A model generated the notes under the pieces. It did not search any database, had not been told where the DNA came from, and worked only from the letters and a program-made list of their open reading frames with translations. Below, one piece after another: positions 1 to 32,209 of a DNA stretch of 64,000 nucleotides (within the stretch, counting starts at the first letter, position 1; the number at the start of each line of letters is the position of its first letter). A program made the translations under genes and the position numbers. Origin of the DNA: an uncultured Chitinophaga sp. (GTDB taxonomy: Bacteria > Bacteroidota > Bacteroidia > NS11-12g > UBA955); NCBI GenBank assembly GCA_964438995.1, contig CAYTMQ010000011.1:8416-72415 (forward strand). The letters are read 5' to 3'.

Positions 1-3000
1 ACAAAGCTTTTGCTTGTGGGTGAACAACCAATTGTTTGAAAATTGTATCAGCACAGCTTTGATCCGATACTACTATCAATCTTGTGTTGAAAGTATCTTC
101 TATTGCATAACTGTGTTGTGTGTTTTTTAGAGTATCTCCATTGTTATCGGCGAAATCCCAATAGTACTTAGAAATTGTACCACTAGCAATTGTTGAACTC
201 GAATTCAAAGCAAAGTTATTGCCTTTAAAACATTGTTTATCTGAATTCACTGCAATTCCAGCTTTCGGACTGGCATTAACGGTTATCAGTTTTACTGCTG
301 TGTCTCTGCAGTTGTGCTCGGTATTGCTTATCAACAACACATAATACGTACCATGTGTACTATAGGTTTTTAGAGCATCTTTGCTTGTTGCAGAAGTATT
401 ATCACCATATACCCACTTATAGTTTAAAGTACCATATTTAAGTGTTGATTGATTGGTAAATGTGTAACTATTTTGGTTGAGACACTGTGTATCATTATTG
501 ACCACATAAGAGGCTTTTGCTTGCGCAAATGTCACCACATTTTTATAAGCGGTGTCTTTACAACCCAAATTACTTGTTCCAATCAATCTAACAGTGAAAG
601 TATCTTCAGAGGCATATTGGTAATTAGCAACATCATTGGTGGTAAAACTTGCTGAGTTGCCTAGGTTCCAATTATAGGTTGTAATACTACCTTTGTTGAT
701 GGTAGATGTATTGGTAAAGTTAAAACGGTTGTTTCTATAACACTGCGTATCTTGATTGACACCAAATTGAACATTAGGATATTTTCCTAAATAAACCATT
801 CTAGTTTTAGAGGCATTACAACCAACACTTGTAGTAGTTGCAAGTTTCACTGTGTAAGTTGAATCTTTTACATATTGTTTATTCAAAACATTACTATCAG
901 TTGAAGTAGTAGCATCACCTAAGGTCCATGAATAGTTTAAAGACCCACCTGAAAATTTGGTAGAATTCACAAAATTGAAAGCATGTCCGTAGAAACATTG
1001 GGTATCTTTATTAATTGAGAAATCCACGACCGGAGTTTCATTCACAAATAAAGTTTTAATCAAACTATCTCGACAACCTGTTGGAGCACTTACAACTAAT
1101 TTAGCAGTATTATTTCCCTTAGAGGTGAAAGCTTTCTTGAGTGACGAATCTGTGTTGGTGGTATTATCACCCCATGTCCATTTGTAACTTAAAGGTTTGA
1201 TTGCCGATGTTGATGTACTACTAAAACTAATTGAATCTAGTGTGCAATAAATAGCATTTGGATAGGTAAAATCAGCTTTTGGATTTGGCACTACAGTCAC
1301 ATTTTGCTTCATTGTGTCTATACACCCATTCCAGTTTTCATAAATTAGCATGACCTTATAATTTCCTGATGCTGTGTAAGAACGAGGACCAGGATTGCTA
1401 TTGCTTTGGACATAGCCTTCGGTAAAATACCATTTGTATCGACGATGGTCGTTTTTGTTGATGACCGTATTATTTTTTAGTTCAATTCCATTGGTATTGA
1501 AACAAGTATCTTTCTTTGTAAACGTGAAGTTTGCTTTAGGAGAAGGCAACACATCAACTACCATGAAGGTATCGTGGTAACAACCGAATTTGGTTTCGGC
1601 TCTCAACACAATTGGGTACATGTTGGCTTTCTTGAATTTGTGATACACCATAGTGTTGGTGTCTTTGGTATAAATTACTGTATCACCAAAATCCCATCTA
1701 AATTGCTTGATGCTATCTTTAAACGATGAGTGATTGGTGTATTTTACATTGATATTTCTATTCAAACAAAACGAATCGTCAGAAATTTCAAAATTGGCTT
1801 TAGGAATTGATGAATTGGTTATAATCAATGAATCTCTAAACACACATCCATTGCGCTCTTTAACCTCCAGCCAATAAGTCCCAGGATTTTTTACGGCCCT
1901 ATAGTATACATTATGACCATCGTTCCATCGGTATTCGTTATCTATGTTAAACCCTTTTGAAATGACGATAATATTGACTGGTCCGCAGATTGCAGTGTCT
2001 TTATTAAACAGAGATTTTATTTTGGTATCTGCAACATACAAACTTTTTGTGACCGAGTCTTTTGCATTGGTCCGTTTGTGGTAACAATACATTTTAACGG
2101 TGTACCATCCAGTATCTGCGTACTTGCGCTTAACATTTGGACCTGTAGCTGTTCCGCCATCACCAAATGTCCAAGAATAGTTTTGGAAACTATCATTTAA
2201 TATGGCCTTAAAACTTACAGTATCTTTTTTACATTGCGCATTGACAATGACATAATTATTTTGAATTGGCTTGAAATTGGCTGCCGCTGCATAAGCATAA
2301 CCTTCGTACCATCCATATCCATACACATAAGACAAAAAACCTTTGGTACTTCTGATGTAATGAGAGCCAGTGTCAATTTGTACTTGAGCGAAATGATAAC
2401 CAGAAAAATTTGGGGCAGTTTTCCATTGGTTTACCTTAAGTTTTTGGTTGTTCCAAAAAAAGTAAGATGTGTCAGTGGTTTTGGTCATGACATTGATGTA
2501 GTGCTCAGGAGAATTCTGTTGCCACCACCAATTGTTGTTCCACCACCACCAAGGCGTTTGAGATACTGTGTTAACTGTTGCTGAAGTACCAAATTGTTCG
2601 TCAGGAAACAATTGCACTTGTGCTGGATCTCCAATCCACGATTTTGTAGGGTGATTTTGACAAACACCCCCGCTATAACCTCCTCCAAGAGCGAATTGCG
2701 CGACTGAAATCCTATTATTAGACGTAATCCTTACAATGGTGTCATTGTATACTTGATGAACATAAAAATTTCCTTGATTAAGTGTAGTTGTATAAGCTCC
2801 ATTAATATACAATGCTGTTGAATTTTCGGCAGCAACAATTTTTAAAGTATATCCTTTTATATTGTTCTTAAAAGGAACGGCTGTGTAATTTTGACCCCAG
2901 TTAACCGTAGGCATCATTTGCTCGTAGTCGTGGTCCCAACTGCTCCAACAGGTTTGATTATTAATGCTCCTATTGGTGTAAGTTTGTCTATTACCAGCAA

Positions 3001-3693
3001 AGACAGCAAACTTAGAATATATGTATTTGGACCTAATAACTGAGCCTGTTAAATCCATATCGGTGGTCATATATTGGAAGGTCTCACCTTTCTTAAGTGT
3101 AATTTGGAATGGGACTCCTGCGACACTAAATCTCGACGAGGCCCCAGTTGGTACTATTTCTATAACAGAAGAATCTGCAATTCCAACAATTGTAAATTCA
3201 GGTGATTGCAAATTTTTACCATTGCAATACCAACCCCAATTGTAATTGTCTTGGTAGGTGGTTATGAAATATTCTGGAGAATACACAATTGACGTAGTAG
3301 GAATGACTACTGTAGCTCCTTTCGACCACCAATATCTGTTTACTGCGTAAACGTTTATTGCAGTATCAGCAGTTATATGAACACCATTGGTGGTTACAGA
3401 ATCTGAATAACGACAAACAACCTCACGCGGCAATCGAACCATTTTAGTGATATTGGGTTGTAATGTTACCGATGTACTAAAACTTTGCCCCGGAGCAGTA
3501 ATTGACACATTAGCAGCGTATTGAGAAGACAAAAACAGCTCAGCTGTATCGTTGTTGTAATAATAGTTGTTGTAATAACAACCCCAATCTTGAGCCATAA
3601 AAGCAACCCAAAAATCCTTACCTGCAGTACCTTGAGCGCTTAATTTTAAGCCACTTAAACTCAAAAATAGGAAAAATAAGATAATGCGTTTCA
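1..3693 (-). CDS. Giant secreted adhesin-like protein with PKD/Ig-like repeats, partial (the C-terminus lies beyond the window start). Start codon at 3693, N-terminal signal peptide MKRIILFFLFLSLSGLKLSAQG
   Basis: Uninterrupted minus-strand reading frame across 1..3693 that I translated by hand. It contains at least 8 tandem ~80-90 aa modules with the recurring DTQC / W-x-F-G-D PKD-type motif. An ATG with a good signal peptide lies at 3693. The six-frame track omits it because the ORF is open at the window edge. Confidence 0.6.
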
Positions 3694-3802
3694 TGTTTAA
3701 TCTTGAGTTCATATAAGGTTTTTATCTATAAAATCGTTAATTTTGCACAAATTTAAGTATTTTTACTTAATTCCAAAACTATTATTTTAACAATTCGATA
3801 AG

Positions 3803-4381
3803 ATGAAAACTGCCAGTTCGTACGCCAAACAAATATTTTGTATTGAAGGAGATTGGCACCCTGATTTACGTCAGAAAGACACCATCGAGAATGCGTTAAA
3901 ATTTATGGAGACAGCCAGTGGTATGAAAATTAAATACATCCACAGACATTGCAGTACTTCTCACGAATTACAAAACAGAATTGAAGAGTACAGCAAAAGG
4001 CGTTACGACCAGTTTAGCATCTTTTATTTGGCCTTTCATGGCGTTCCGAATGGTTTGAAACTTAGTCAGAAGAACATACTCTCACTTGATGAGTTAGCCG
4101 AAATGGCAGAAAACAAACTCCAAAACAAGATTTTACACCTTGGCAGTTGCGAAACTTTAAACGTTAGCAAACATCAAATAAAAAAATTCTTAAGACAGAC
4201 TGGCGCTTTATGCGTAAGCGGCTTCAAAAAAGAAGTTCCATTCGTGAGTTCAACCATTTTCGACGTTTTGTACTTCGAGATGTGCCAATACTACAAACAA
4301 ATGCACATCATCGAAAAGCATATGAAAAACTACTATGGCAAATTGATGAAAGAGCTTCAATTCGTAATGGTTTACGAGTAA
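3803..4381 (+). CDS. Hypothetical 192 aa protein with a caspase-like (clan CD, peptidase C14-like) His/Cys dyad arrangement
   Basis: Hydrophobic strand + HG (SIFYLAFHG, His79) and hydrophobic strand + SC (KILHLGSCE, Cys116) align with the caspase SHG ... QACRG topology. The N-terminal strand IFCIEGDW resembles the caspase beta1 strand. No signal peptide. Confidence 0.45.
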   Translation: MKTASSYAKQIFCIEGDWHPDLRQKDTIENALKFMETASGMKIKYIHRHCSTSHELQNRIEEYSKRRYDQFSIFYLAFHGVPNGLKLSQKNILSLDELAEMAENKLQNKILHLGSCETLNVSKHQIKKFLRQTGALCVSGFKKEVPFVSSTIFDVLYFEMCQYYKQMHIIEKHMKNYYGKLMKELQFVMVYE

Positions 4382-4394
4382 AAACCCAACTTTC

Positions 4395-4461
4395 AACCTG
4401 TACATTTCAACCTTGTAAGGTTGATTTCCTGAAATTTTCAACCTTGTAAGGTTGACGACCT
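4395..4461. repeat. REP-like palindromic repeat cluster: partial copy plus two copies of CAACCTTGTAAGGTTG at 31 bp spacing, ending GACGACCT
   Basis: Copies at 4408-4423 and 4439-4454, terminal ACGACCT 4455-4461. Lies between convergent gene ends. Confidence 0.6.
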
Positions 4462-4474
4462 CCGATGTTGAAGA

Positions 4475-6673
4475 TTACAAATTGGTTTCTAAATACTTGG
4501 TAATTTTAGTGAACAAATGCAACCTGGTTTTGCCGCCTGCAATACCGTGGTTTTTGTTTGGATAATATTCGGCGTCATAAGCAATGTTCTTATCGTTCAT
4601 AGCTTTTACCATTTCGGCAGCATTCTGGAAATGCACATTGTCGTCGGCCGTTCCATGTATGATCAAATAATTGCCTTTAATTTTGTCGACATGCGACAAT
4701 GGTGAGTTGTTATCGTATCCCAATGGATTTTCATTAGGTGTGCGCATGTAACGTTCAGTATAAATATTGTCGTAAAACCTCCAATTGGTTACTGGTGCCA
4801 CAGCTACGGCAGTTTTAAAATAATCTGCTCCTCTTGTAATACAGTTACTGGCCATAAATCCGCCATAACTCCATCCAAAAATTCCGATTCTCTTACTATC
4901 AACATAAGACTGTGAGCCGAAGTACTTAGCTGCTTCAACATAATCTTTGGTCTCTAAATTTCCCAAATTTAAGTAAGTCATTTTCTTAAACTCCTCTCCT
5001 CTACCACCACTACCTCTATTATCAACGCTAATCACTATATAACCCTTAGCTGCCATGTATTGGTACCACAAATAATTTGCTCCTCCCCACTGATTTTTCA
5101 CAGTTTGGTAACCAGGACCGCCATACACAAAAAACAGCACAGGATATTGTTTGCTCGCATCAAAGTTTGGAGGTAAAATTTTCCAATAATCCAACTTCAC
5201 ATTTTCAGTCGTTGTAAAGCTTCCAAATTCTACCTGACCTAAATTCAATGTTGCTAATTTATCTTTTAAAGCTTTGTTATCTTCCAAAACCCTTATAACC
5301 ATGCCAGCTGCATCTTTTATAGCAAAAACAGCCGGATTGGTTAAAGTACTGTAATTGTCAACAAAAAACTCGAAACTGCTATTAAAACTAATGGTATGCC
5401 AACCTTTCTCAGTGGTAATTTGTTTCATTTCACCAGTTTTTACATTAACCGAAAACAACTGCCTTTCTGAAGGATTGTCTTTACCTGAAGTGAAATAGGC
5501 TAATCCATTGTTGTATCCGTTCACAACATCAATTTCCCAATCTCCTTTTGTTAATTGAGTAACTTTATATCTCGAATTCATGGCATATAAATGCTTATAT
5601 CCACTTGCTTCTGATGTAAACAAGGCTATAACATTGGTATCTTCACCATTGGTGTAAGTCCAATCTTCTATTTCTATGTAGTACTTATTAGTTTCAGTGT
5701 ATATCACTTCAGCTTTGTTGTAGAAATAAGAAAATCTCAATACTTCCAATTTGTTTTGCAATCTATTTAAACGCTGAACTGACAAGAAGTTTTGACTCAT
5801 CCATTTAATTCTTGGTAAATATTGATCGTTTTGCGAACCAGTCTCGCAGTAGACATCTTTTTTCTTTCCAATTTTGTGGATGAAAACATCAACCTTACTA
5901 TTAGGCTCGCCGGCTTTAGGGTACTTCCAAGTTTCTTTTTTGGGATACAAATCGCCATACAAATCCATGCTGAAATACGGCACCTTTGATTCATCAAACT
6001 TATAATAGGCAATAAACTGCCCATCAGGACTCCATTCGAATCCTCTGCTCATGCTAAATTCCTCTTCATATACCCAATCTACAGCTCCATTGATGATGTG
6101 GTTTTTTTCTCCATCTTTAGTAATTTGGATGTCTTTCTTTTTAATGACATCATAATAAAACAAGTTGTTATCACTCACATATGCCACTTTGGTAGCATCC
6201 GGACTTAGAGTCGCATACATGATTTTCTTATTAGAGATTTTCACCAAGTTGCCAGTTCTTATATCGTACAAGTACACATTACTTTTTCCACTGTGACGGT
6301 AAACCGATTCAAAGCCATTGGTGATCAAAACTTTCGTTTCATCTTGACTGAAGGCATACGATTCAATCTGAATTGGCATTGAATCAACCAAAATCTTATC
6401 CGTAGAGAACAACGTACTCAATTTATTACCTGTTTTAAAATCATATCTGTTACAGGCTCTTGATTTATCAGGATTGGCGTCTAATTGACAATATGATTTT
6501 CCATCGTTTAAAGAATTAAATCCAGGAACAAACTTAGAAGCGAATTCTCTGCTGTTCCAAATGTTTTCAAGACTTAATTGAGCCGATGCTTCTCCAATTA
6601 ATAAGCTGAATATGGCAATGATTAACACTCTCATAATCGGCAAAAATACATAAAAATACTTGGGTTCAATCAT
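4475..6673 (-). CDS. S9B family peptidase, dipeptidyl-peptidase IV-like
   Basis: N-terminal signal peptide, long beta-propeller region, catalytic GWSYGG Ser motif, downstream IHGTADDNVHF (Asp/His of the triad). 732 aa. Confidence 0.85.
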   Translation of the reverse strand: MIEPKYFYVFLPIMRVLIIAIFSLLIGEASAQLSLENIWNSREFASKFVPGFNSLNDGKSYCQLDANPDKSRACNRYDFKTGNKLSTLFSTDKILVDSMPIQIESYAFSQDETKVLITNGFESVYRHSGKSNVYLYDIRTGNLVKISNKKIMYATLSPDATKVAYVSDNNLFYYDVIKKKDIQITKDGEKNHIINGAVDWVYEEEFSMSRGFEWSPDGQFIAYYKFDESKVPYFSMDLYGDLYPKKETWKYPKAGEPNSKVDVFIHKIGKKKDVYCETGSQNDQYLPRIKWMSQNFLSVQRLNRLQNKLEVLRFSYFYNKAEVIYTETNKYYIEIEDWTYTNGEDTNVIALFTSEASGYKHLYAMNSRYKVTQLTKGDWEIDVVNGYNNGLAYFTSGKDNPSERQLFSVNVKTGEMKQITTEKGWHTISFNSSFEFFVDNYSTLTNPAVFAIKDAAGMVIRVLEDNKALKDKLATLNLGQVEFGSFTTTENVKLDYWKILPPNFDASKQYPVLFFVYGGPGYQTVKNQWGGANYLWYQYMAAKGYIVISVDNRGSGGRGEEFKKMTYLNLGNLETKDYVEAAKYFGSQSYVDSKRIGIFGWSYGGFMASNCITRGADYFKTAVAVAPVTNWRFYDNIYTERYMRTPNENPLGYDNNSPLSHVDKIKGNYLIIHGTADDNVHFQNAAEMVKAMNDKNIAYDAEYYPNKNHGIAGGKTRLHLFTKITKYLETNL

Positions 6674-6768: not shown

Positions 6769-8406
6769 ATGAAACGCTTAATAGTATTGGTATTGCTCTA
6801 TCCTTTACTCTCTTGGTCACAAACAGAGGATAAGTCTATCTTACCAGAAAATTTCCACAAAATCAGCTCCTCTAAATTGGATATGAAATATTTAGATGGC
6901 AGCTATATAGTGCTTGAAATGGGCTTTAATGGCTCTATTCCCAAAAACAAACTTGAAAAAATTCAGCCGCAAAACATTGAATCCATCACACTTGCTTATT
7001 CTCGCTATCGCTTAAGCGAATCTTTCGACCAAAATGCGCTCAACATGCAGCGTATGCAGAAACTTTATGAGCAAATTCCTGGTATTAAGAAAAACAAAAA
7101 CATCAATTGGTTTTGGGTAGAACAAACTGGTTGCAAAGAAGCAGAAGCTTGTAAAGATTATTTCCATGGCTTCATCATCACCCTAAAAAGCGATGAAATG
7201 CGTTTGTATAAAGAAACAGAAATTGCATTGTTAGATTATTACAGTAGCATTTACGAAGGGATGATTGATCCTAGAAAAATGGACTCATTGATTAGCACTG
7301 GAAAATTACCTTATGTTAAAAAATGTGATACCATGACTTTGAGAACGCCCATTAGAGGCAATAAACTACCAAAGGTAAAGGGATGGGACCGCGAGAACAA
7401 TGATGTATTGGCCAAACTTCTCAAAACCGAACTCGACAATCAAGATACCATCAATTTCCAAGCCTATTTAAACGATGAAGGTGATTTTTTAAGTTACGAG
7501 TCAGAACTTACTTTCATCAAAGAAAAACGCATCACCCGCTTCTTAAAAAACAATTTAAAAGTGAGTCCTGGTAAATATGAAAAACAAAAAGTAGCCTCAA
7601 AAGTGTATGTGACTCTTTTCAAAAATAAATCAGGTTATAAAATCAACTTTAAAGCATTTCCTTATGATGAAAGTGATGGAGAATACGATGTCGACAAATT
7701 CTTATACGTTAGCAAGCTCCAAACTGTATGCGACTATTTAGACACAAGTGCATTAAAAGTTTCAAGCACTTTGTTGTCAAATACACAAGATGTGGTTATT
7801 AAGGTATTTGAAAGGAATAAAGACTGGAAAAATTGTTTGGTAGCTACTGATGTTACCGCAAGTATGTATCCATATTTAGCCCAATTTCAAATGTGGCACA
7901 AACTGCATCTTGATCAGAATGCAGGGAATCACGATTTTATATTTTTCAATGATGGTGATAATTGTCCAGACATTATCAAAGTTGACGGCAATGTGGGCGG
8001 ATTGTATTACATCAATACTTCTAACTTCGAACAATTATCTATTACGATGAAAAAGGCGATGTTAAAAGGCAATGGAGGTGATAGACCAGAAAACAATATT
8101 GAAGCCGTTATTGAAGGACTTAAAAAGAATCCAAATATTAAAGAGGTTATAATGATTGCGGACAACTACGCTACACCTCGTGATATGGAATTATTAAAAC
8201 AAGTTAAAGTGCCAATTCACTTGATTCTTTGTGGTACTCAAAAAGGATTCAATCCAGAATACTTGAACATGATTAAAGTCAATAAAGGGACTCTTCATAC
8301 CATGGATCAAGACTTAACTGATTTATCCAAATTAAGTGAAGGTCAAACCATCAAAATTGACAACAAAATCTACAAAATTGTCAATGGCAAATTTGTTATG
8401 AAATAA
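6769..8406 (+). CDS. Secreted protein with C-terminal vWA-like domain
   Basis: Signal peptide MKRLIVLVLLYPLLSWSQ. MIDAS-like D-x-T-x-S (ATDVTASM) and downstream GGDRPEN / VIMIADN segments typical of the vWA fold. Confidence 0.55.
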   Translation: MKRLIVLVLLYPLLSWSQTEDKSILPENFHKISSSKLDMKYLDGSYIVLEMGFNGSIPKNKLEKIQPQNIESITLAYSRYRLSESFDQNALNMQRMQKLYEQIPGIKKNKNINWFWVEQTGCKEAEACKDYFHGFIITLKSDEMRLYKETEIALLDYYSSIYEGMIDPRKMDSLISTGKLPYVKKCDTMTLRTPIRGNKLPKVKGWDRENNDVLAKLLKTELDNQDTINFQAYLNDEGDFLSYESELTFIKEKRITRFLKNNLKVSPGKYEKQKVASKVYVTLFKNKSGYKINFKAFPYDESDGEYDVDKFLYVSKLQTVCDYLDTSALKVSSTLLSNTQDVVIKVFERNKDWKNCLVATDVTASMYPYLAQFQMWHKLHLDQNAGNHDFIFFNDGDNCPDIIKVDGNVGGLYYINTSNFEQLSITMKKAMLKGNGGDRPENNIEAVIEGLKKNPNIKEVIMIADNYATPRDMELLKQVKVPIHLILCGTQKGFNPEYLNMIKVNKGTLHTMDQDLTDLSKLSEGQTIKIDNKIYKIVNGKFVMK

Positions 8407-11347: not shown

Positions 11348-11402
11348 CCGACCTTACAAGGTTGGTTTTTCGATTTTTTCAACCTTACAAGGTTGACGAC
11401 CT
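11348..11402. repeat. REP-like palindromic repeat cluster: CGACCTTACAAGGTTGG plus CAACCTTACAAGGTTG-ACGACCT, 31 bp apart
   Basis: Copies at 11349-11365 and 11380-11395, tail 11396-11402. Divergent intergenic region. Confidence 0.6.
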
Positions 11403-14014: not shown

Positions 14015-14053
14015 AGGTTTAAAAAACTTAGAAGGTTTCCAAACTGTGCATTC

Positions 14054-14172
14054 CAACCTTACAAGGTTGTCGTAACAATCTAAACCAACCTTACAAGGTT
14101 GTCGAAATGATCCAAACCAACCTTACAAGGTTGTCGTAACGATCCAAACCAACCTTACAAGGTTGCCGACCT
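14054..14172. repeat. REP-like tandem array: four copies of CAACCTTACAAGGTTG with 32 bp period and near-identical 16 bp spacers, ending CCGACCT
   Basis: Copies at 14054-14069, 14086-14101, 14118-14133, 14150-14165. Spacers tcgtaacaatctaaac / tcgaaatgatccaaac / tcgtaacgatccaaac. Abuts the LysR stop codon. Confidence 0.65.
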
Positions 14173-15094
14173 AGTACTTTTCGTACCAGTCGAAGTTGGA
14201 TTTTACTATGCGGTTTTTTTCGACGGTGATGTAGTCGATAAAGGATTGGGCTGCTGCTGTGTGTTTTTTACCTTTTAACCAGATTAGACTCCAAGTTGTT
14301 TTAATGGGCAATCCTTTCATTGGAATGATGGACAATTCGTTGTTGTGCAATTCATTTCTAATCCCAATCAATGGCATAATAGAGTATCCTAAACCAGCTA
14401 AAATGGCCTGCTTAACGGCTTCATTGGATGTTAATTCCATTTTGCGATCAATATCGAAACTGCTCTTCTCTATAAACTTCTCCATAACAGTTCGTGTTCC
14501 AGAACCGCGCTCTCTAAAGATAAAAGGCAAACCATTGATCTCTTCTTTGGTTAGTCCAGTTTTCTTAAGCTTGGGATTCATCTTACCAACCATGTACAAT
14601 TTGTTTTGTAACAAGTCGATTTTCTTAATGTTAAAATTGTTGGGCACTATAGATACCAAAGCAAAGTCGACCTCGTTATTCTCAAGACTCTCTACCACCT
14701 TTTGTTTGTTGGTTACATCCATTATCAAATCAATACTCGGATTCTTATTGATAAATCCCGATAAATAATATGGCATGATGTATTGACCAGTCGAGACTAT
14801 AGAAATTTTAAGTTTTCCAAACAACTTGCCTTTGTACTCCAAAGTTCGGTAGTTGATGTTGTATACTTCCTCTAAAATTCTTTCTGCTGATTTGGCTATC
14901 TCTTTACCAAAGTCGGTAATATAAATTTTCCTACCCACAACCTCTGTCAAAGGAATATCAAACTGATCTTGAAAGTTTCTCAACTGAATAGACACTGCAG
15001 GTTGAGTCAAATTAAGCTCTTCTGCAGCCTTAGTAACACTCTCTGTTTGCACTATCTTTAAGAAGATTTGCAACTGATTTAATGTATAATTCAT
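14171..15094 (-). CDS. LysR-family transcriptional regulator
   Basis: N-terminal wHTH (LNQLQIFLKIVQTESVTKAAEELNLTQPAVSIQLRNFQ) plus a substrate-binding domain. Divergent from the efflux operon. Confidence 0.85.
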   Translation of the reverse strand: MNYTLNQLQIFLKIVQTESVTKAAEELNLTQPAVSIQLRNFQDQFDIPLTEVVGRKIYITDFGKEIAKSAERILEEVYNINYRTLEYKGKLFGKLKISIVSTGQYIMPYYLSGFINKNPSIDLIMDVTNKQKVVESLENNEVDFALVSIVPNNFNIKKIDLLQNKLYMVGKMNPKLKKTGLTKEEINGLPFIFRERGSGTRTVMEKFIEKSSFDIDRKMELTSNEAVKQAILAGLGYSIMPLIGIRNELHNNELSIIPMKGLPIKTTWSLIWLKGKKHTAAAQSFIDYITVEKNRIVKSNFDWYEKY

Positions 15095-15564: not shown

Positions 15565-16647
15565 ATGAAACGAATTAATTTTTTGATCATCATTGGGCTA
15601 ATCATCTCTTTAGCCTCTTGTTCATCAAAGCACGAAGAAGACAAAGAAAACATCAAATTCACAGCTACTTCCCCCCTTCTAACTGACACCTCTATCATCA
15701 GAAATTATGTCTGCCAGATTCACGCCATTCAACACATTGATATCAGAGCGTTAGAAAAAGGGTATCTCGAAAAAATATACGTAGACGAAGGTCAACACAT
15801 CAAAAAAGGTCAGTTAATGTTTCAAATCATGCCTTTGATCTACAATGCAGAACTTCAAAAATCACAAGCAGAAGCCGATTTCGTAGAGATAGAATACAAA
15901 AACACCAAATTACTCTATGAAAAAAATGTGGTATCAGCCAACGAACTAGCCCTTGCTAAAGCAAAACTTGAAAAAGCGAAAGCCGAACTTAAACTGGCTC
16001 AAACCCACTTACTATTCACCGAAATTAGAGCGCCTTTTGATGGCATTATGGACCATTTTCAAGTGAGATTGGGTAGCCTAGTAAACGAAGGCGATTTGCT
16101 TACAACACTTTCAGACAACAGTCAGATGTGGGTGTATTTTAATGTTCCTGAAGTTGAATACCTCAATTACAAACTCAACACTACTAAAGAAAATTTTAAC
16201 AATGTACAACTACTAATGGCAAACAATCAACTGTTCAATCATAATGGTAGTGTTAAAACCATAGAAGCCGACTTCAACAATGAAACTGGTAATATCCAAT
16301 TCAGGGCTACTTTCCCTAATCCTGAAGGCTTGCTTAGACATGGAGAAACTGGCAATATTCAAATGGCCATTAACTTGAAAGATGCCATCATCATTCCTCA
16401 AAAATCTACTTTCGAAGTACTAGAGAAACGTTATGTTTTTGTAATTGACAAAGACAATGTTGTACACTCAAAAGAAATCAATGTGGCGGCTGAGATGCCC
16501 GACCTGTACATCATCAAAGATGGCTTATCTAAAGATGATAAAATTATGTTAGAAGGCATCAGAAAAGTAAAAGATGGCGATAAAATTTCTTACACCTTCG
16601 AAAACCCTAAAGATGTAATCCCAAAACTTAAAGTTTACGTAGAGTAA
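15565..16647 (+). CDS. Efflux RND transporter periplasmic adaptor (HlyD/MFP family), lipoprotein
   Basis: Lipobox LASC, coiled-coil hairpin and beta-barrel domains of MFPs. 1 bp gap to the downstream pump gene. Confidence 0.85.
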   Translation: MKRINFLIIIGLIISLASCSSKHEEDKENIKFTATSPLLTDTSIIRNYVCQIHAIQHIDIRALEKGYLEKIYVDEGQHIKKGQLMFQIMPLIYNAELQKSQAEADFVEIEYKNTKLLYEKNVVSANELALAKAKLEKAKAELKLAQTHLLFTEIRAPFDGIMDHFQVRLGSLVNEGDLLTTLSDNSQMWVYFNVPEVEYLNYKLNTTKENFNNVQLLMANNQLFNHNGSVKTIEADFNNETGNIQFRATFPNPEGLLRHGETGNIQMAINLKDAIIIPQKSTFEVLEKRYVFVIDKDNVVHSKEINVAAEMPDLYIIKDGLSKDDKIMLEGIRKVKDGDKISYTFENPKDVIPKLKVYVE

Positions 16648-16648
16648 T

Positions 16649-19600
16649 ATGTTCAGTAAATTCATTCAAAGGCCTGTATTGGCTATTGTTATTTCATTAA
16701 CAATTTTATTCATAGGTGGCTTGGCCATCAAAACTCTTCCAACATCTCAATTCCCAGAGGTTGCCCCTCCAGTGGTGATGGTGAGTGCGTCTTATCCTGG
16801 TGCAAGTGCTAAATCTCTAGCAGAATCTGTTATCATTCCTTTAGAACAATCTATCAATGGTGCTTGGGGTATGAGGTATATGACTTCTGATGCTACAAGT
16901 GCTGGTGAAGCCAATATTCAAGTAGTGTTCGAGCCCGGAACCGACATCAACCAAGCATTGGTTCAGGTGTCTAACAGAGTTCAGCAAGTTACCAACCGTT
17001 TGCCAATACTGGTACAACGTGAAGGTGTCGTTATAACACCAGTTATTCCAAGTATGTTGATGTATGTCAACCTCTATAGTAAAGATAAAAATTCGGACAT
17101 GAAATTTTTATTCAACTATGCTGGTGTTAACATGGTACCTGAGATTCAACGTATCAACGGCGTTGGTCAGGTTAGAATACTCGGAAGTAGACAATACGCA
17201 ATGAGAATTTGGTTGAATCCTGATCGTATGAGGGCTTACAACGTATCTCCTGATGAGGTTATGGAGGCATTAAGCGACCAAAGTATCATTGGCAAACCTG
17301 GTCGTATTGGTAGAGGCGACAGCAAACAAGCCGAAGCATTAGAATATGTATTAACCTATAACGACCGTTACAACGATCCTACTCAATACGACAATGTCAT
17401 CATTAGAGCCAATTCAAACGGAGAAAATCTTCGACTTAAAGACATAGCAACTGTCTCATTGGGCAGTGAATATTATGACATTTACTCTAATATGAACGGA
17501 CACCCTTCTGCTGCGATGGTTATCAAACAAACCTACGGCAGTAATGCAAGCGATGTTATCAAACAAGTAAAAGACAAACTTGAAGTCTTGAAAAAATCCT
17601 TCCCGCCTGGTATGGAATATGAAATATCCTATGATGTATCAAACTTCTTAGATGCTTCTATTGACAACGTCATACACACTTTAAGAGATGCCTTTATATT
17701 GGTGGCTTTAGTGGTATTCATATTTCTTGGCGATTGGCGTTCGACCTTGATTCCAACATTGGCTGTACCAATATCATTAATTGGAGCATTCTTCTTCATA
17801 CAGTTGTTTGGGTTAACCATCAATATGGTGACTCTATTTGCCTTGGTACTTGCCATCGGTATTGTTGTAGATGACGCCATTGTTGTTGTTGAAGCAGTGC
17901 ATGCAAAAATGGAAGAAGAGCACCTCTCTCCATACAATGCGGTTAGAAAAGTTATTGGAGAAATTAGTGGCGCAGTAATAGCCATTACTTTGTTGATGGT
18001 ATCTGTGTTTATTCCAGTATCGTTCATGACTGGTCCGGTTGGTACCTTCTACCGACAATTCTCCATCACTATGGCTTCATCTATCGTACTATCTGGTATC
18101 GTGGCATTAACTGTTACACCTGTTTTATGTGCCATGATATTAAAGAACAACCATGGAAAGCCAAGAAAGAAAACGTGGATGAATAGGTTCCTTGATAAAT
18201 TCAATCACCTTTTCGAACGCTTAACAGGAAAATATGTGTGGTTATTGAAACTGATTGCACACAGAAGAATTATCACTGTAGCCATGTTTACCATCTTTAG
18301 CTTAGGCATATTAGGCGTTAGCAAGATGTTGCCTTCAGGATTCATTCCAAGTGAAGACCAAGGAATGTTATATGCCATTATTCAAACACCTCCAGGTTCA
18401 ACATTAGAGCGCACAAACGATTTATCGAACAAACTTGTAGAAGTGATAAGAAAAGTAGATGGCGTAAAATCAGTATCATCTATCGCAGGATATGAAGTAC
18501 TAACTGAAGGTAGAGGTTCTAATGCAGGCACATGTCTAATCAATTTAAAACCTTGGTCGGAGCGCGATAAAGATATCACAGAAATTATTGAAGAACTTGA
18601 AGAAAAAGCTAAGGAAATTCCTGGTGCTACCATCGAGTTCTTTGACCCTCCGGCTGTACCAGGATTTGGTGCTGCAGGTGGATTTGCATTACAGCTTCTA
18701 GACAAAACAAATACGGGTGACTTGATGGAACTTGAAAAAGTGAAAAACGAATTCATGAGAGAGTTAGAAAAACGCAAAGAACTTACAGGATTATTTACAT
18801 TCTTTAGCGCCAACTATCCTCAATATGAAATTGAAATAGACAATCAAGCGGCCATGCAAAAAGGTGTAACTATAGGTAACGCCATGAATACATTATCCAT
18901 TTTTGTTGGTAGCACATATGAGCTAGGTTTCATCAAATACCAAAGATTCTTTAAAGTGTTTGTGCAAGCTTCACCAGAATTCAGAAAACTGCCAACTGAT
19001 ATCATGAATCTTTATGTTAAAAACAACAAAGATGAGATGGTTCCATTTTCAGCCTTTATGAGAATTAAAAAGAAACAAGGGGCTAATGAAATTAATCGTT
19101 ATAACATGTACAATACAGCAGCCATAAGAGGTGGACCCGCCAATGGATATAGCAGTGGTGAAGCCATAGATGCTGTTAAAGAAGTTGCTGCAAAGACATT
19201 GCCACACGGTTACGATATCGACTGGGCTGCGTTGTCGTATGACGAGACAAGAAGAGGCAACGAAGCTATTTACATTTTCATCATCGTATTGATTTTTGTA
19301 TACTTTGTTCTTGCTGCTCAATACGAAAGTTTCATCATTCCATTAGCGGTAGTATTATCACTTCCAGCAGGTGTATTTGGATCTTTCTTAATGATTAAAG
19401 GTATGGGATTGGCCAACGACATCTACGCCCAAGTTGGTTTGGTGATGCTGGTTGGATTATTAGGAAAAAATGCTGTATTGATTGTAGAGTTTGCCGTACA
19501 AAAACACCATCAAGGCGCTACAATTTTAGAAGCGGCAATTGAAGGAGCAAAAGTGAGATTCAGACCAATCTTAATGACATCATTTGCTTTCATTGCTGGA

Positions 19601-19861
19601 TTGATACCATTGGTTATTTCGCATGGAGCAGGAGCAATAGGTAATAAAACAATTGGTTCATCTGCCTTAGGAGGTATGTTATTCGGTACCATATTCGGTG
19701 TCATCATTGTACCTGGCTTGTATTACATCTTTGGCACTTGGGCTCAAGGTCGTAAGCTCATCAAAAATGAAGACGAAAATTCACTAACTGAAGATTTGGT
19801 TCACCAAATGGACAAATTCCCACAATCAACCGATTCTAGTCATGATTCAACAAACATTTAA
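16649..19861 (+). CDS. RND efflux permease (AcrB/MexB-like, HAE1 family)
   Basis: 1070 aa, 12-TM architecture with two large periplasmic loops, and conserved N-terminal MFSKFIQRPVLA and TM4 VVDDAIVVVE motifs. Confidence 0.9.
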   Translation: MFSKFIQRPVLAIVISLTILFIGGLAIKTLPTSQFPEVAPPVVMVSASYPGASAKSLAESVIIPLEQSINGAWGMRYMTSDATSAGEANIQVVFEPGTDINQALVQVSNRVQQVTNRLPILVQREGVVITPVIPSMLMYVNLYSKDKNSDMKFLFNYAGVNMVPEIQRINGVGQVRILGSRQYAMRIWLNPDRMRAYNVSPDEVMEALSDQSIIGKPGRIGRGDSKQAEALEYVLTYNDRYNDPTQYDNVIIRANSNGENLRLKDIATVSLGSEYYDIYSNMNGHPSAAMVIKQTYGSNASDVIKQVKDKLEVLKKSFPPGMEYEISYDVSNFLDASIDNVIHTLRDAFILVALVVFIFLGDWRSTLIPTLAVPISLIGAFFFIQLFGLTINMVTLFALVLAIGIVVDDAIVVVEAVHAKMEEEHLSPYNAVRKVIGEISGAVIAITLLMVSVFIPVSFMTGPVGTFYRQFSITMASSIVLSGIVALTVTPVLCAMILKNNHGKPRKKTWMNRFLDKFNHLFERLTGKYVWLLKLIAHRRIITVAMFTIFSLGILGVSKMLPSGFIPSEDQGMLYAIIQTPPGSTLERTNDLSNKLVEVIRKVDGVKSVSSIAGYEVLTEGRGSNAGTCLINLKPWSERDKDITEIIEELEEKAKEIPGATIEFFDPPAVPGFGAAGGFALQLLDKTNTGDLMELEKVKNEFMRELEKRKELTGLFTFFSANYPQYEIEIDNQAAMQKGVTIGNAMNTLSIFVGSTYELGFIKYQRFFKVFVQASPEFRKLPTDIMNLYVKNNKDEMVPFSAFMRIKKKQGANEINRYNMYNTAAIRGGPANGYSSGEAIDAVKEVAAKTLPHGYDIDWAALSYDETRRGNEAIYIFIIVLIFVYFVLAAQYESFIIPLAVVLSLPAGVFGSFLMIKGMGLANDIYAQVGLVMLVGLLGKNAVLIVEFAVQKHHQGATILEAAIEGAKVRFRPILMTSFAFIAGLIPLVISHGAGAIGNKTIGSSALGGMLFGTIFGVIIVPGLYYIFGTWAQGRKLIKNEDENSLTEDLVHQMDKFPQSTDSSHDSTNI

Positions 19862-21278
19862 AACATACATCACAATATTCACTGCCGTTTTTATTATAGC
19901 ATCTTGCGGCAGTTCTGTAAAAGTTGCACAAAAGAACGAGAACAGAAATGTGCCAGCTACATACAACAATGTCGCTGACACAAGCAATAGCGCTATGCTG
20001 CGTTGGAAAGAATTCTTTAAAGACTCTAACCTTATCGTATTAATAGATTCGGCTCTATCAAGAAATCAGGAATTGAACATCATGCTTCAAGAAATCAATA
20101 TTGCAAAGAACGACATCAAAGCAAGAAAAGGTGCTTACTTACCTTATGTTGATTTGGGTGGAGGAATTGGTGTTGAAAAGGTTGGCAGGTATACGTCAAA
20201 AGGCGCAAGTGATGCTACCAATCAAGTAGCTCCGGGTATAAAATTTCCTGAACCACTGGCAGATTTCTATGCTACACCTCGATTAAATTGGGAGATAGAT
20301 ATATGGAAGAAACTTCGCAACTCAAGGAAAATGGCCATTAACAAATATTTATCATCTATTGAAGGAAGAAGGTATATGGTCACAAATTTGATTTCAGAGA
20401 TTGCCGATTCTTATTATGATTTACAAGTACTGGATTTACAATTAGACATCATCAGACAGAACATCGACATTCAAACCAATGCCTTGGAGTTGATTAAAAT
20501 TGAAAAGAATTCTGCAAAGGTGACAGAACTTGCTGTTAAAAAGTTCGAAGCCGAAGTGTTAAAAAACAAGAGTCTACAATATGCGCTTTTACAACAAGTG
20601 AGAATAGCCGAAAATAGAATCAATTTCTTAGTTGGTAGATTCCCTCAACCTGTAGTACGCACAAAAATGGCTATGGACTCATTTGCAATTGATTCAATTC
20701 ATGCTGGAGTGCCTTCACAATTGTTAAGCAATAGACCAGACATCAGACAATCTGAATACGAATTGATGGCTGCTAAACTAGATGTCAAAATAGCCAGAGC
20801 TGAGTTTTATCCCAATGTACGAATTACTGCTGGTACTGGCTTTCAAGCCTTCAATCCAAGTTACTTACTGAAAACACCTGAGTCACTGTTGTACAGTATT
20901 GCTGGAGATATTGCAGGACCATTGATCAATAGAAATGCCATCAAGGCCAATTTAATGTCGGCAAACGCTAGACAAATACAAGCAGCATACAAATACGAAC
21001 AAACACTATTGAATGCATTTATAGAAGTATCCAACCAATTGTCAAACATTGATAACTTAAAAAACAGTTACGATTTAAAAAGCAAGCAGGTTGATGCTTT
21101 AAATAGCTCTATTGAAATATCCATACTATTATTCAAATCGGCTAGAGCAGATTATATGGAAGTATTGATGACACAAAGAGATGCTTTAGAATCTAAAATG
21201 GAAATGGTAGAATTGAAAAAACAGCTGCTTAATGCCAATATCAATTTATATAAAGCATTAGGCGGTGGAACAAGATAG
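19842..21278 (+). CDS. TolC-family outer-membrane efflux protein (OMF), lipoprotein
   Basis: Lipobox IASCGSS, two internal OEP repeats, overlaps the pump gene end by 20 nt. 478 aa. Confidence 0.85.
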   Translation: MIQQTFKTYITIFTAVFIIASCGSSVKVAQKNENRNVPATYNNVADTSNSAMLRWKEFFKDSNLIVLIDSALSRNQELNIMLQEINIAKNDIKARKGAYLPYVDLGGGIGVEKVGRYTSKGASDATNQVAPGIKFPEPLADFYATPRLNWEIDIWKKLRNSRKMAINKYLSSIEGRRYMVTNLISEIADSYYDLQVLDLQLDIIRQNIDIQTNALELIKIEKNSAKVTELAVKKFEAEVLKNKSLQYALLQQVRIAENRINFLVGRFPQPVVRTKMAMDSFAIDSIHAGVPSQLLSNRPDIRQSEYELMAAKLDVKIARAEFYPNVRITAGTGFQAFNPSYLLKTPESLLYSIAGDIAGPLINRNAIKANLMSANARQIQAAYKYEQTLLNAFIEVSNQLSNIDNLKNSYDLKSKQVDALNSSIEISILLFKSARADYMEVLMTQRDALESKMEMVELKKQLLNANINLYKALGGGTR

Positions 21279-21633: not shown

Positions 21634-22599
21634 ATGAATTATAGTCTATTAATTGAAAATTTAACCAATCCAGCTTTATTATTTTTCGTTTTAGGTATTG
21701 TAGCCGTTTCTTTAAAAAGCGATTTAGAAATACCACCCAACTCATCAAAATTTATTTCTATTTACCTATTGTTTTCTATAGGATTCAAAGGTGGACAAGA
21801 ACTTTCTCATGAGACATTCGATTTGGATATATCGTTGTCTATGTTATTCGGAATCATCATTTCTTTATCTATTCCACTCTACACATTTTTCATACTCAAA
21901 CGTCGATTGAGCATTTATGATGCTGGTGCAATTGCCGCTGCTTATGGCTCTGTCAGTGCTGTTACGTTTGTAACTGCAGTATCGTATTTAGAATCACATC
22001 AAATGCACATGAAAGGTCACATGGTTGCTGTAATGGCCTTAATGGAATCTCCAGCAATCATCATGGGATTGATACTGATTTCAATCTTCGATAAAGACAA
22101 TGCAAAACAGAGCATCAACAAACTAGATGTATTAAAGCATTCATTAACCAACGGAAGTGTGCTGTTAATTCTTGGCAGTTTGATTATTGGCTATTTAGCC
22201 AGTGCCAAACAGGCTGAGGGTATTAAGCCATTTACGACCGATATTTTCAAAGGATTTCTAGCGATTTTCTTATTAGACATGGGCATCAACAGTGGTAAGA
22301 AATTGAAATCATTTTTCTCTTACGGTTGGTTTCCAGTGATGTTTGCAGTCATCATTCCAATTCTCAACGGTTGTTTGTTTGGATATGTTAGCGGATTTTT
22401 TGTTCAAGACATCAGCAGTAGATTTGTATTTGCAATTTTGGCGGCCAGTGCATCATACATTGCCGTACCAGCTGCGATGAAAATAACAGTACCCAAATCA
22501 GATCCTGGATTATACTTACCAATGGCACTGGCTGTAACATTTCCAGTCAATATTACTTTAGGTATGCCTCTGTTTTACAATATTGTTCAATGTCACTAA
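21634..22599 (+). CDS. SbtA/DUF897-family permease (putative Na+-dependent anion transporter)
   Basis: Multi-TM protein. The N-terminal LTNPALLFFVLGIVAVSL..LEIP and DAGAIAAAYGSVSAVTFVTA segments parallel the SbtA bicarbonate-transporter family. No adjacent PII-like sbtB was seen. Confidence 0.6.
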   Translation: MNYSLLIENLTNPALLFFVLGIVAVSLKSDLEIPPNSSKFISIYLLFSIGFKGGQELSHETFDLDISLSMLFGIIISLSIPLYTFFILKRRLSIYDAGAIAAAYGSVSAVTFVTAVSYLESHQMHMKGHMVAVMALMESPAIIMGLILISIFDKDNAKQSINKLDVLKHSLTNGSVLLILGSLIIGYLASAKQAEGIKPFTTDIFKGFLAIFLLDMGINSGKKLKSFFSYGWFPVMFAVIIPILNGCLFGYVSGFFVQDISSRFVFAILAASASYIAVPAAMKITVPKSDPGLYLPMALAVTFPVNITLGMPLFYNIVQCH

Positions 22600-23876
22600 T
22601 TGATTACTACAACTTTTATTGAACGGCCTTTCTTTCCAGAAAACCCATTAAATCCTGAATCACCGCTGTCTCCTGAACTTGCATTAGAACGACTGCTAGA
22701 GTCTCTTGACTTGTTGTATCCTTTGCTACCAGAAGAGCCTGCACTACCTCCTTTTCCGCCTAAACCACCTTCGTTATTGAGATGTATTTTGGATATGTAC
22801 TTTTGAGACATGGCATCGGTATAAATTGTTAAGTGACCGCCATCTCCACCATTGCCACCGTGTCCTCCATTTCCGCCATTGCCACCATGACCAATTTCAT
22901 TTGGTATTGATGAGTCGTAACCAGACCCACCATAACCTCCGCTTCCTCCATTACCGCCCCTTCCTCCTTTCAGTTGAATATCCACTTCAGAGCCAGATTC
23001 AAATTCCAGGAAAAAAGTATCACTTTGATAAAAATCGCTTTTTACAATCAGTCTTGTAATTGTTGAATCCATGTTTGTGAGATACAATTCCATATCTGCC
23101 GCATCTCCACCATAACTACCAGAAGAGCCATTGTCACCATTACCTCCATTTGGGGTTCTTTCACAACCACTAGAGCCACTGCGTCCATCGCGACCATCAA
23201 CGCCATTTGGCCCATTGTCCAACAATTGTATTACTTGATTGTATTTGACGTTAGAAGAGAGTTCAGTTTTAATATCAGATTGATATCTAATAAAGAACTC
23301 CATTTCAAACGATTTTATCACTTTTCGGCTATTAAAGGTCATTATAGCATCTTCAATATTCAATCCTTCTGGCAAGCTATCGAACCCAATTAAATGCAAT
23401 AAATTTGGATACTTTTTGGTTGACACTTTTTGTTGATTGTCAAAAGTGACAATAAAATTCAGTGGATATTTTTCAGAAACCTTAATGGTGCGATATGAAT
23501 CTTCAAGTGCAATATGGATTGGGCGAGGAATATGCAAAAAAAGTGTGTCAACATATTTACCATCATTTTTTTTAGCAATGATATACGGATCAATCTTTTT
23601 ACTGTATAAATCTTCCCTATCATAAGTAAATTTACCTTCAAAATTGACCGCGCAGTTAACACCAATAAATTCGATGTAACTTATCATCAAACCACCACCC
23701 ATATTATCGGATGTTCTTAGTTTCTTTTTCTTTTTAAAGGTAGCGCCAAGTTCGCCTTTGCTGCTATAAAGATAATTAGAGTCAAGCGGAAAAATGGTCA
23801 GTTGAGCTTTGAGAGAAAAGGCTTCAAAAATGAGTGCAAAAAATAGAAAGTACTTGGTTTTAGTCATTCTATTCAA
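22596..23876 (-). CDS. Secreted protein with C-terminal glycine-rich collagen-like (GGX / G-X-Y) low-complexity repeats
   Basis: Signal peptide MNRMTKTKYFLFFALIFEAFSLKAQ, a ~230 aa globular N-domain, then GPNGVDGRDGRSGSSG, GGRGGNGGSGGYGGSG, GHGGNGGNGGHGGNGGDGG and GGLGGKGGSAGSSGSKG blocks. 36 bp downstream of hipA on the same strand. Confidence 0.55.
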   Translation of the reverse strand: MNRMTKTKYFLFFALIFEAFSLKAQLTIFPLDSNYLYSSKGELGATFKKKKKLRTSDNMGGGLMISYIEFIGVNCAVNFEGKFTYDREDLYSKKIDPYIIAKKNDGKYVDTLFLHIPRPIHIALEDSYRTIKVSEKYPLNFIVTFDNQQKVSTKKYPNLLHLIGFDSLPEGLNIEDAIMTFNSRKVIKSFEMEFFIRYQSDIKTELSSNVKYNQVIQLLDNGPNGVDGRDGRSGSSGCERTPNGGNGDNGSSGSYGGDAADMELYLTNMDSTITRLIVKSDFYQSDTFFLEFESGSEVDIQLKGGRGGNGGSGGYGGSGYDSSIPNEIGHGGNGGNGGHGGNGGDGGHLTIYTDAMSQKYISKIHLNNEGGLGGKGGSAGSSGSKGYNKSRDSSSRSNASSGDSGDSGFNGFSGKKGRSIKVVVIN

Positions 23877-23912: not shown

Positions 23913-25223
23913 TCACAACTTCAACAAAGTTGATTCAATTTCCTTTCTCAAACTAGACTTAACTTTGACCTCGTTTGCAAAGTGCGACCAATGGTTGATT
24001 GCGTACTGAATATCATCAATAATCTTATCAGCTTGTTTACAACGAATGGTTTCTCCTAGCACCAACAAATCTTCTTTTGAAATTCCAGTTCGTTTGCCAT
24101 TGATGCTTAAGGCATGCTGACTTACCCATTGACTTCCTGGTTTATAAGCATGACAAATATCGTAAGCTGGCGCTAGCGACCATTTGTCGCCTTGTTTTAA
24201 ACGAAATGAAAAATTCTTGGTATGATCATCGCAATTGCGTGCTATCACATTAAATACCATTCTTCTAAACATTTGTTCTGCTGAAGGATAATCAAGTTTC
24301 AATTGTCGCATCAATTGAAAGAGCTGTTCGTAACTAAAACTATTGACTTCGTTGTAATCAAAGTGGTTGAGCGCACAAAATGTTTGTATGTGGTGCTTGG
24401 TGTCGATTCCTTCACGGTCAAATCGCATGGTCATAAAGTGGGCTCTTCCATTCTCTTCTAAAAGACGAGAAGGCATCATCTCTATACCAACGCTTGTAGC
24501 CATTTTATAATAAGCCATTTCTACCCTGCCGTATCCTGAACTTGAGCCCAATTGAACATTGCTAACACCGTCGAGTTTGATGAGCCAATGCTCGAATCCT
24601 TTAGGCGTATTTGTCTGTCCAGAACGCACCTCTCCTGTTTTTTCATTGAACGCAATAACAGCTTTTGGTCGCGCACCTCCAGCAGAAGTTCCAATTTTAA
24701 GAATGTCTTTTACTGCTGTTTCGTCTTCTTTGTTGATTTTAGTTGAGAACTTTTGTTTGTTTGACAGCATTCTACTGGCAATGTCAACCATGTTGTCTAT
24801 CTCTATTCTAAATGTTCTGCTATGATGAGGCATAGAAAAAGGCTCAAACTCTAACGCCCCCATTCCTCTATTTCCTATAAAGCACAACATCTCAACTGGA
24901 TTCATACTATTAGGAGCTCTTCCTAACATTGCCAACCATTGATTGATCAATTGATTGCCATACCTATCTGGCAATACATCGGCTAACAATCCAGGCAATC
25001 CTTTGAATGTATTGAAATCTGAATATGGATTGCCTTTCAACTCCGGGAAACTAAAATATTTCTGAGTGGAGCTTAGTGGCATTTTGATTGGAGACAATTC
25101 AATACCAGATGATTTAAAATTAGCATCGTACTCAAAACCTGCAACGCCTGTTTGAGAATTCCAAGCCACTGCACCAGCTACAGTATTCCATATTTTAACA
25201 AATGCTGTTTCCATTATTACCAA
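23913..25223 (-). CDS. hipA: Type II toxin-antitoxin system HipA-family Ser/Thr kinase toxin
   Basis: HipA N- and C-domains with the catalytic VIARNCDDHTKNFSF (D-x-H-x-K-N) and P-loop-like SAGGARPKA motifs. Overlaps the upstream HTH gene by 7 nt. Confidence 0.85.
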   Translation of the reverse strand: MVIMETAFVKIWNTVAGAVAWNSQTGVAGFEYDANFKSSGIELSPIKMPLSSTQKYFSFPELKGNPYSDFNTFKGLPGLLADVLPDRYGNQLINQWLAMLGRAPNSMNPVEMLCFIGNRGMGALEFEPFSMPHHSRTFRIEIDNMVDIASRMLSNKQKFSTKINKEDETAVKDILKIGTSAGGARPKAVIAFNEKTGEVRSGQTNTPKGFEHWLIKLDGVSNVQLGSSSGYGRVEMAYYKMATSVGIEMMPSRLLEENGRAHFMTMRFDREGIDTKHHIQTFCALNHFDYNEVNSFSYEQLFQLMRQLKLDYPSAEQMFRRMVFNVIARNCDDHTKNFSFRLKQGDKWSLAPAYDICHAYKPGSQWVSQHALSINGKRTGISKEDLLVLGETIRCKQADKIIDDIQYAINHWSHFANEVKVKSSLRKEIESTLLKL

Positions 25224-32133: not shown

Positions 32134-32209
32134 TGGTTGCGAATATCGGACTCGAACCGATGAACTTCTGGTTATGAGCCAGACGAGATACCAACTTCTC
32201 TAATTCGCA
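32134..32209 (-). tRNA. tRNA with CAU anticodon (elongator tRNA-Met, or tRNA-Ile2 if lysidine-modified), 76 nt with encoded CCA
   Basis: Hand-folded cloverleaf: acceptor TGCGAAT/ATTCGCA 7 bp, D-arm GAGA-AGTTGGTA-TCTC, anticodon arm TCTGG-CTCATAA-CCAGA, variable AGTTC, T-arm ATCGG-TTCGAGT-CCGAT, discriminator A, CCA. U1-A72 is paired, so it is not an initiator. Confidence 0.85.

Follow-up and report, generated by a model that had tools for sequence, protein, structure and literature searches.

A DUF6642 family protein from an uncultured Chitinophaga sp. is predicted to be a minimal, stand-alone caspase-fold cysteine protease

Results

The window analyzed here, a stretch of 64,000 nucleotides from an uncultured Chitinophaga sp. 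(GCA_964438995.1, contig CAYTMQ010000011.1), contains a complete ATG-start coding sequence at 3803–4381 of the plus strand, which encodes a DUF6642 family protein of 192 amino acids followed by a stop codon. Structure prediction places this protein, with very little doubt, in the caspase-hemoglobinase fold (MEROPS clan CD) as a single domain, and it is probably an active, single-chain cytoplasmic cysteine endopeptidase of that clan. A bare protease of this kind, devoid of a sensor, is the probable reading because a high-confidence caspase fold is combined with a nearly universal His-Gly/Cys arrangement. An earlier note on the same DNA had proposed a minimal stand-alone caspase-like cysteine protease candidate, and this core reading was supported by the fold, the position of the dyad and the conservation.

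Family membership and distribution

The protein matched the Pfam family DUF6642 (PF20347) with an E-value of 3.1e-34 and 118.7 bits, where the gathering score is 27 bits, and the match extended from residue 9 to residue 191 over positions 2–182 of the 182-position profile. All 33 aligned homologues matched the same family. The proposal that the protein stands alone was upheld, as it is a single domain of 192 amino acids with PF20347 alone and falls within the architecture defined here as stand-alone (about 180–215 amino acids, single domain). A scan of the protein against NCBIfam gave no match, the PADLOC-DB 2.0 defence models gave no family at E ≤ 10, and a single-sequence search of the PDB gave no significant match; a gramicidin S synthase returned by the latter search (E = 0.097) was judged spurious. 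The Pfam matches to Sec8_N (E = 2e-4, 21.6 bits, below the cut-off of 26.8; 5 of the 33 members), BRCT and CobU were set aside as noise because the fold contradicts these assignments.

When 1.84 billion cluster representatives were searched with a profile, 1,853 matched at E ≤ 1e-3, 483 of them at E ≤ 1e-30, and the 150 best representatives were nearly all 180–210 amino acids long. A further profile search, with matches annotated by Pfam, gave 518, the best 120 of which carried PF20347 alone; no domain fusion was found in the members, and the few longer ones had no second recognizable domain. A relative fitting one motif pattern is present in at least 313 species-level genomes, and the best 80 of them were nearly all labelled Bacteroidota, including the cultured genera Paraflavitalea, Flavisolibacter and Flavobacterium. 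More distant members came from Sandaracinaceae, Dehalococcoidia, Anaerolineae, Cloacimonadota and a Brevibacterium plasmid, so that the phyla represented are Bacteroidota, Myxococcota, Chloroflexota, Cloacimonadota and, on the plasmid, Actinomycetota. DUF6642 is thus widespread among bacteria, with at least 1,853 clusters (50% identity) spread over several phyla. Its relatives are named in RefSeq and GenBank only as “DUF6642 family protein” or “hypothetical”, and a search of the literature found no paper mentioning DUF6642 or PF20347. The family is already catalogued, and caspase-fold Cys-His peptidases, including small stand-alone examples such as Tce2, are known; what seems undescribed is DUF6642 as a widespread, strongly constrained and sensor-less minimal caspase-fold family.

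Predicted fold

The AlphaFold2 model, built on a 33-sequence alignment, had a pLDDT of 93.1 and a pTM of 0.90. Its topology is beta1 (11–15), alpha1, beta2 (45–49), alpha2, beta3 (73–77), a small hairpin, alpha3, beta4 (110–113), alpha4, beta5 (137–141), alpha5, an extra helix and beta6 (187–191), and structure comparison showed it to be a caspase-type alpha/beta/alpha sandwich. Foldseek against the PDB returned a SAVED-CHAT protease as the best match (2e-7), followed by caspase-3/7/1/4, CED-3 and Craspase, all with a probability of 1.00. These results support the claim of the earlier note that the protein aligns with the caspase core; a non-caspase fold, which would have told against it, was not seen. 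In a viral structure library the named matches were clostripain, caspase and metacaspase proteins. The top match in that library was an uncharacterized protein of 320 amino acids from Myoviridae sp. ctWaE18 (BFVD A0A8S5MXG5; E = 1.9e-8; TM 0.76 on the query), which outscored every named viral caspase, and a phage may thus encode a DUF6642-like or CHAT-like core.

The three motifs quoted in the earlier note were all in place, IFCIEGDW at residues 11–18, SIFYLAFHG at 71–79 followed by Gly80, and NKILHLGSCET at 108–118. In the model, the segment from Ile11 to Trp18 (3833–3856, plus strand), which includes Cys13 and Glu15, forms strand beta1 and the loop after it; the segment YLAFHG (4025–4042, plus strand) ends beta3 and carries His79 (codon 4037–4039) and Gly80 (4040–4042); and ILHLGSCET (4130–4156, plus strand) comprises beta4 and Cys116 (codon 4148–4150). 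The spacing of about 37 residues given for the two proposed catalytic positions comes to 37 from His79 to Cys116. The tail of about 75 amino acids, for which a p10-like role had been suggested, came to 74 residues beyond the Cys motif (4157–4378, plus strand) and, according to DSSP of the model, consists of alpha4 (123–133), beta5 (137–141), alpha5 (147–161), an extra helix (167–185) and beta6 (187–191), that is, it carries alpha4, beta5, alpha5 and beta6 as the p10 part of caspases does. The model has no p20/p10 linker, the Cys116 loop running directly into alpha4, and no prodomain, the core fold beginning at residue 11. The protein likewise has no cleaved signal peptide, in agreement with the earlier note, because its hydrophilic N-terminus lacks a hydrophobic stretch and residues 11–15 form the core strand beta1 of the model.

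Active site and conservation

In clan CD, which includes caspases, legumain, gingipain and separase, beta3 terminates in the catalytic His, which a Gly follows, and beta4 in the catalytic Cys. The DUF6642 protein has the same order, with His79-Gly80 directly after beta3 and Cys116 directly after beta4. Eight residues (C13, E15, W18, F78, H79, G80, C116, and G140) were invariant in the 33 homologues, which reach down to about 30% identity. In a larger set of 207 sequences, 150 of which represent clusters at 50% identity, H79, G80 and C116 were each kept in 99.5%, E15 in 99%, W18 in 98%, G140 in 97.6% and C13 in 93%. Among 142 highly diverse sequences, with a mean column identity of 24%, the sole fully invariant column was C116. 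Homologues lacking the His or Cys position would have spoken against the proposed catalytic pair; in the 207 sequences the pair was retained almost throughout. The likeness of the motifs to those of caspases goes beyond chance, because the protein matches DUF6642 from end to end and His79, Gly80 and Cys116 are conserved.

Profile searches of the PDB pointed in the same direction. The 33-sequence profile gave just two matches below E = 10, both of them caspases, and the 142-sequence profile gave 13, of which 10 were caspases (E = 0.039–1.3, the lower value being the best). In the alignment with a caspase-3 chain (6wi4_A), which is below significance, lafHGekg falls on ilTHGEEG and hFgsCs on FFQACQ in one register. 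An hhalign comparison with human caspase-3, in which the catalytic motifs of the latter are visible, placed the His in the same register with a probability of 8–21%. Each of these sequence matches is non-significant by itself, but they form a coherent picture when taken with the conservation and the fold. Cys116 and His79 probably form a catalytic dyad, as judged from their place in the topology, their conservation and the register of the alignments, and Glu15 and Trp18, which follow beta1, are candidates for a third active-site residue or for a part of the S1 pocket.

Relation to known caspase-fold proteases

The best structural match was to the CHAT proteases, represented by SAVED-CHAT of type III-B CRISPR/CBASS (PDB 8tl0) and TPR-CHAT/Csx29 of Craspase (PDB 7y83, 7zoq, 8d9f), although the identity was only 13–18% and the Pfam CHAT family (PF12770) was not matched at E ≤ 10 by any of the 33 members. 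CHAT proteases are found in defence operons and bear SAVED or TPR domains as sensors or adaptors, whereas DUF6642 members are bare proteins of about 190 amino acids with no conserved partner; no fusion or operon with TPR, SAVED or CRISPR/CBASS genes was found, and the most frequent neighbour family occurred in at most 4 of 16 lineages. The Peptidase C14 family (PF00656) was also not matched at E ≤ 10 by any of the 33 members. Caspases, metacaspases and orthocaspases of C14 have p20 and p10 parts separated by a linker, or a prodomain, while the DUF6642 protein has neither, nor does it have a CARD or DED. Maturation cleavage is therefore not expected. It also differs from caspases in the loop after beta1, where an invariant Glu is found instead of recognizable caspase S1 residues. 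Separase (C50), gingipains (C25), legumain/AEP (C13) and clostripain-like peptidases (C11) are far larger, multi-domain or secreted enzymes with pro-peptides, and no significant sequence relationship to any of these four families was found. DUF6642 would accordingly be a separate family inside clan CD, neither C14 nor CHAT.

A counterpart of similar size is Tce2 (PA2372) of Pseudomonas aeruginosa, a stand-alone protein of 190 amino acids whose C115S mutant loses toxicity (PMC13323088). [quoted passage not shown] DUF6642, in comparison, showed neither a DUF4347 match nor an association with hcp or vgrG, and no T6SS association was seen in the window or in the compared loci.

Genomic context

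The DUF6642 gene forms its own unit, divergent from the upstream gene (108-nt spacer) and convergent with the downstream one (93-nt spacer). The neighbours named in the earlier note are both present. Upstream, at 2–3694 of the minus strand, lies a gene for an IgGFc-binding/PKD-repeat secreted protein of adhesin type, which extends past the left end of the window and carries a CHU_C T9SS sorting domain in the relatives; downstream, at 4475–6673 of the minus strand, lies an S9 DPP-IV gene. A functional link to these two genes, as implied earlier, was not supported. The pairing is limited to the lineage of the window.

An alignment of 10 relatives revealed a conserved block at 3738–3769 of the plus strand, which contains a −7 box TAnnTTTG (3738–3745) and a palindrome TAAGTA-N4-TACTTA (3754–3769), and which is retained although synonymous sites within the gene are saturated. 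The palindrome occurs once in the window; it is exact in three relatives (L014, L015, L020) and symmetrically altered in a fourth (L016, TAGGTA..TACCTA). Judged by its sequence, the block is probably the gene's own promoter together with an operator or a 5′-UTR hairpin; the −7 box is read as a promoter element from its likeness to the published Bacteroidetes consensus.

Within the 93-nt gap between DUF6642 and DPP-IV, two tandem 31-nt units (4397–4458) each contain a hairpin TCAACCTT-GT-AAGGTTGA. The pair folds as RNA at −27.3 kcal/mol (z = −5.2) and probably terminates transcription in both directions or is a REP-like element. The repeat, (T/A/G)CAACCTT-GT-AAGGTTG(A/G) in units of about 31–32 nt, gave 10 strand matches across the window, where 0.01 would be expected, and its copies are intergenic: the two after the DUF6642 stop codon, one at 11379–11396 and four in tandem at 14053–14166. 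In two relatives with 88% identity (L001, 8601–8924; L002, 5744–6067), an ORF of 107 amino acids without a Pfam match separates DUF6642 from DPP-IV; its counterpart in the window is the gap at 4382–4474 with the hairpin repeats.

Conserved neighbours were sought across related genomes, and none was found: in ORF clustering of 92 family loci from 16 lineages, no neighbour family occurred in more than four lineages, the most frequent being a generic sensor-kinase family. Recurrent neighbours such as FtsZ, enoyl-CoA hydratase, RadA-like, HAD, cyclophilin and acylphosphatase genes were considered as partners and rejected, being lineage-specific housekeeping genes. Neither a conserved neighbour nor a fusion thus pointed to a substrate. 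Synteny within lineages was stable. In one large Bacteroidia lineage, DUF6642 comes immediately after ftsZ, in the same orientation and closing the ftsQ-ftsA-ftsZ cluster, in 15 of 25 loci (L003, L051, L056, L058–L060, L063, L065, L067–L069, L071, L073, L077, and L080), with gaps of 14–295 nt, typically about 50–66; this adjacency could reflect shared ancestry or a functional tie to cell division. In another lineage the gene follows that of an enoyl-CoA hydratase in nine of nine loci, and elsewhere it is placed after a RadA-like gene, after guaB, after accA, or between rplS and priA. A Cloacimonadota locus (L098, 3940–9668) has genes for serpin, DUF2207, DUF6642 and S9 prolyl oligopeptidase packed closely on one strand, followed by S49 and M1 (T9SS-tail) peptidases; its S9 neighbour recalls the S9 DPP-IV of the window, a likeness confined to these two lineages.

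Purifying selection

Compared with 20 relatives of the same length, the gene was only 11–43% identical at four-fold degenerate sites, which are thus saturated, while the protein retained 73–95% identity with dN of 0.045–0.22. Four-fold-site identity was used in place of dN/dS because saturation of synonymous sites precludes the latter. The gene is under very strong purifying selection, which is more in keeping with a conserved cellular role than with a toxin in an arms race.

Discussion

In the predicted protease, Cys116 would act as the nucleophile and His79 as the general acid/base, and the oxyanion hole would be formed, by analogy with caspases, by the backbone amides of Gly80 and Cys116. 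In legumain and gingipain R, Asn42 and Glu152, respectively, orient the catalytic His. Glu15/Trp18 may serve likewise or may shape the S1 pocket. Since the Cys loop of the model runs straight into alpha4 with no linker, the enzyme would act as an intact chain without maturation cleavage, as CHAT, separase, legumain and gingipain do. It would be transcribed alone, from the conserved promoter block and uncoupled from the adhesin and DPP-IV genes. A cellular processing or regulatory protease of narrow specificity is preferred over a fast-evolving weapon because of the very strong purifying selection and the mostly housekeeping neighbourhoods.

The earlier note had also raised the idea of a protease effector or toxin module. 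Together with a latent single-gene anti-phage or abortive-infection enzyme, this amounts to a conflict-system protease, having the same chemistry in another role, and we consider it unlikely. The nearest structural relatives are indeed defence proteases (SAVED-CHAT, Craspase TPR-CHAT, DdvA CHAT), and Tce2 is a precedent for a T6SS toxin that consists of a 190-amino-acid stand-alone protease of the same fold. Against this, the protein matched no PADLOC model, no T6SS, immunity or secretion-related gene lies near it in the window, and it has no signal peptide; the effector idea was left unsupported. Patchiness across phyla and the minority of members in conflict-type regions also argue for a conflict role. 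These members lie between Mrr and type I restriction-modification genes together with HipA_2 (L005/L006), near HigB (L010–L012), near HsdM and Schlafen-AlbA_2 (L097), beside an abortive-infection (Abi) family gene on a plasmid (L095) and inside a phage-like gene run (L004). In most lineages, however, the gene sits at housekeeping sites (ftsZ, guaB, rplS, accA, enoyl-CoA hydratase), and strong purifying selection with stable within-lineage synteny is atypical of arms-race genes. An association with phages or plasmids is almost entirely lacking: 50,697 phage genomes contained no member, 72,556 plasmids contained one, and the single occurrence among 2.9 million viral contigs was on a contig of 519 kb.

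The clan-CD fold is also found in transamidases, peptide ligases and pseudo-proteases. The same Cys-His pair might carry out transpeptidation or ligation in the manner of GPI8 transamidase and legumain-type ligases, or might remove peptide or acyl modifications, but this is quite improbable, since nothing points to it specifically, the top matches both by structure and by sequence are to endopeptidases (CHAT, caspases) and no conserved partner would supply an acceptor substrate. A non-catalytic caspase-fold scaffold, comparable to c-FLIP or the N-terminal domain of Raptor, or a generic Rossmann-like similarity with a His and a Cys placed by chance, is less probable still.

Prokaryotic caspase-fold proteases have attracted interest mainly as immune effectors (Craspase, SAVED-CHAT, CBASS, NLR-like) that are restrained by sensor domains or partners. 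The proposed DUF6642 protease would be the opposite extreme, a catalytic core alone with no fused or genomically linked regulator. If it is active, a sizeable DUF gains a testable biochemical annotation, how a naked cytoplasmic caspase-like enzyme stays specific or silent becomes a question, and a very small scaffold becomes available to study or engineer minimal clan-CD catalysis. A bolder proposal, speculative and rather unlikely, is that DUF6642 represents an unrecognized clan CD peptidase family with a minimal, sensor-less caspase fold of about 190 amino acids, which is strongly constrained and acts in the cytoplasm as an intact chain on a dedicated cellular substrate (with a possible link to cell division in the lineage where it follows ftsZ), or else that it is a single-gene immunity protease that stays latent until an invader protein activates it without the help of a sensor. 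The present status of DUF6642 is that of a well-supported structural annotation and not of a demonstrated new system.

Other features of the window

Between the DPP-IV gene and an OMP_b-brl_3 gene, a plus-strand ORF (6769–8406) encodes a protein of 545 amino acids with a signal-peptide-like N-terminus and a sub-threshold VWA_4 match; it is missing at that position in the relatives L001 and L002 and looks like a lineage-specific insertion. Further along are a LysR regulator (14171–15094), an RND efflux operon (15565–21278) and, on the minus strand, a HipA-like kinase toxin gene (Couple_hipA and HipA_C; 23913–25223) adjoined by an ORF of 426 amino acids without a Pfam match (22596–23876). The region from about 30658 to 64000 is a probable prophage with a tyrosine integrase (30658–31791), a tRNA-Met (32134–32209, minus strand), a Phage_capsid protein (50232–51638) and a long run of minus-strand ORFs without Pfam matches, including ones of 1181, 783, 706 and 592 amino acids.
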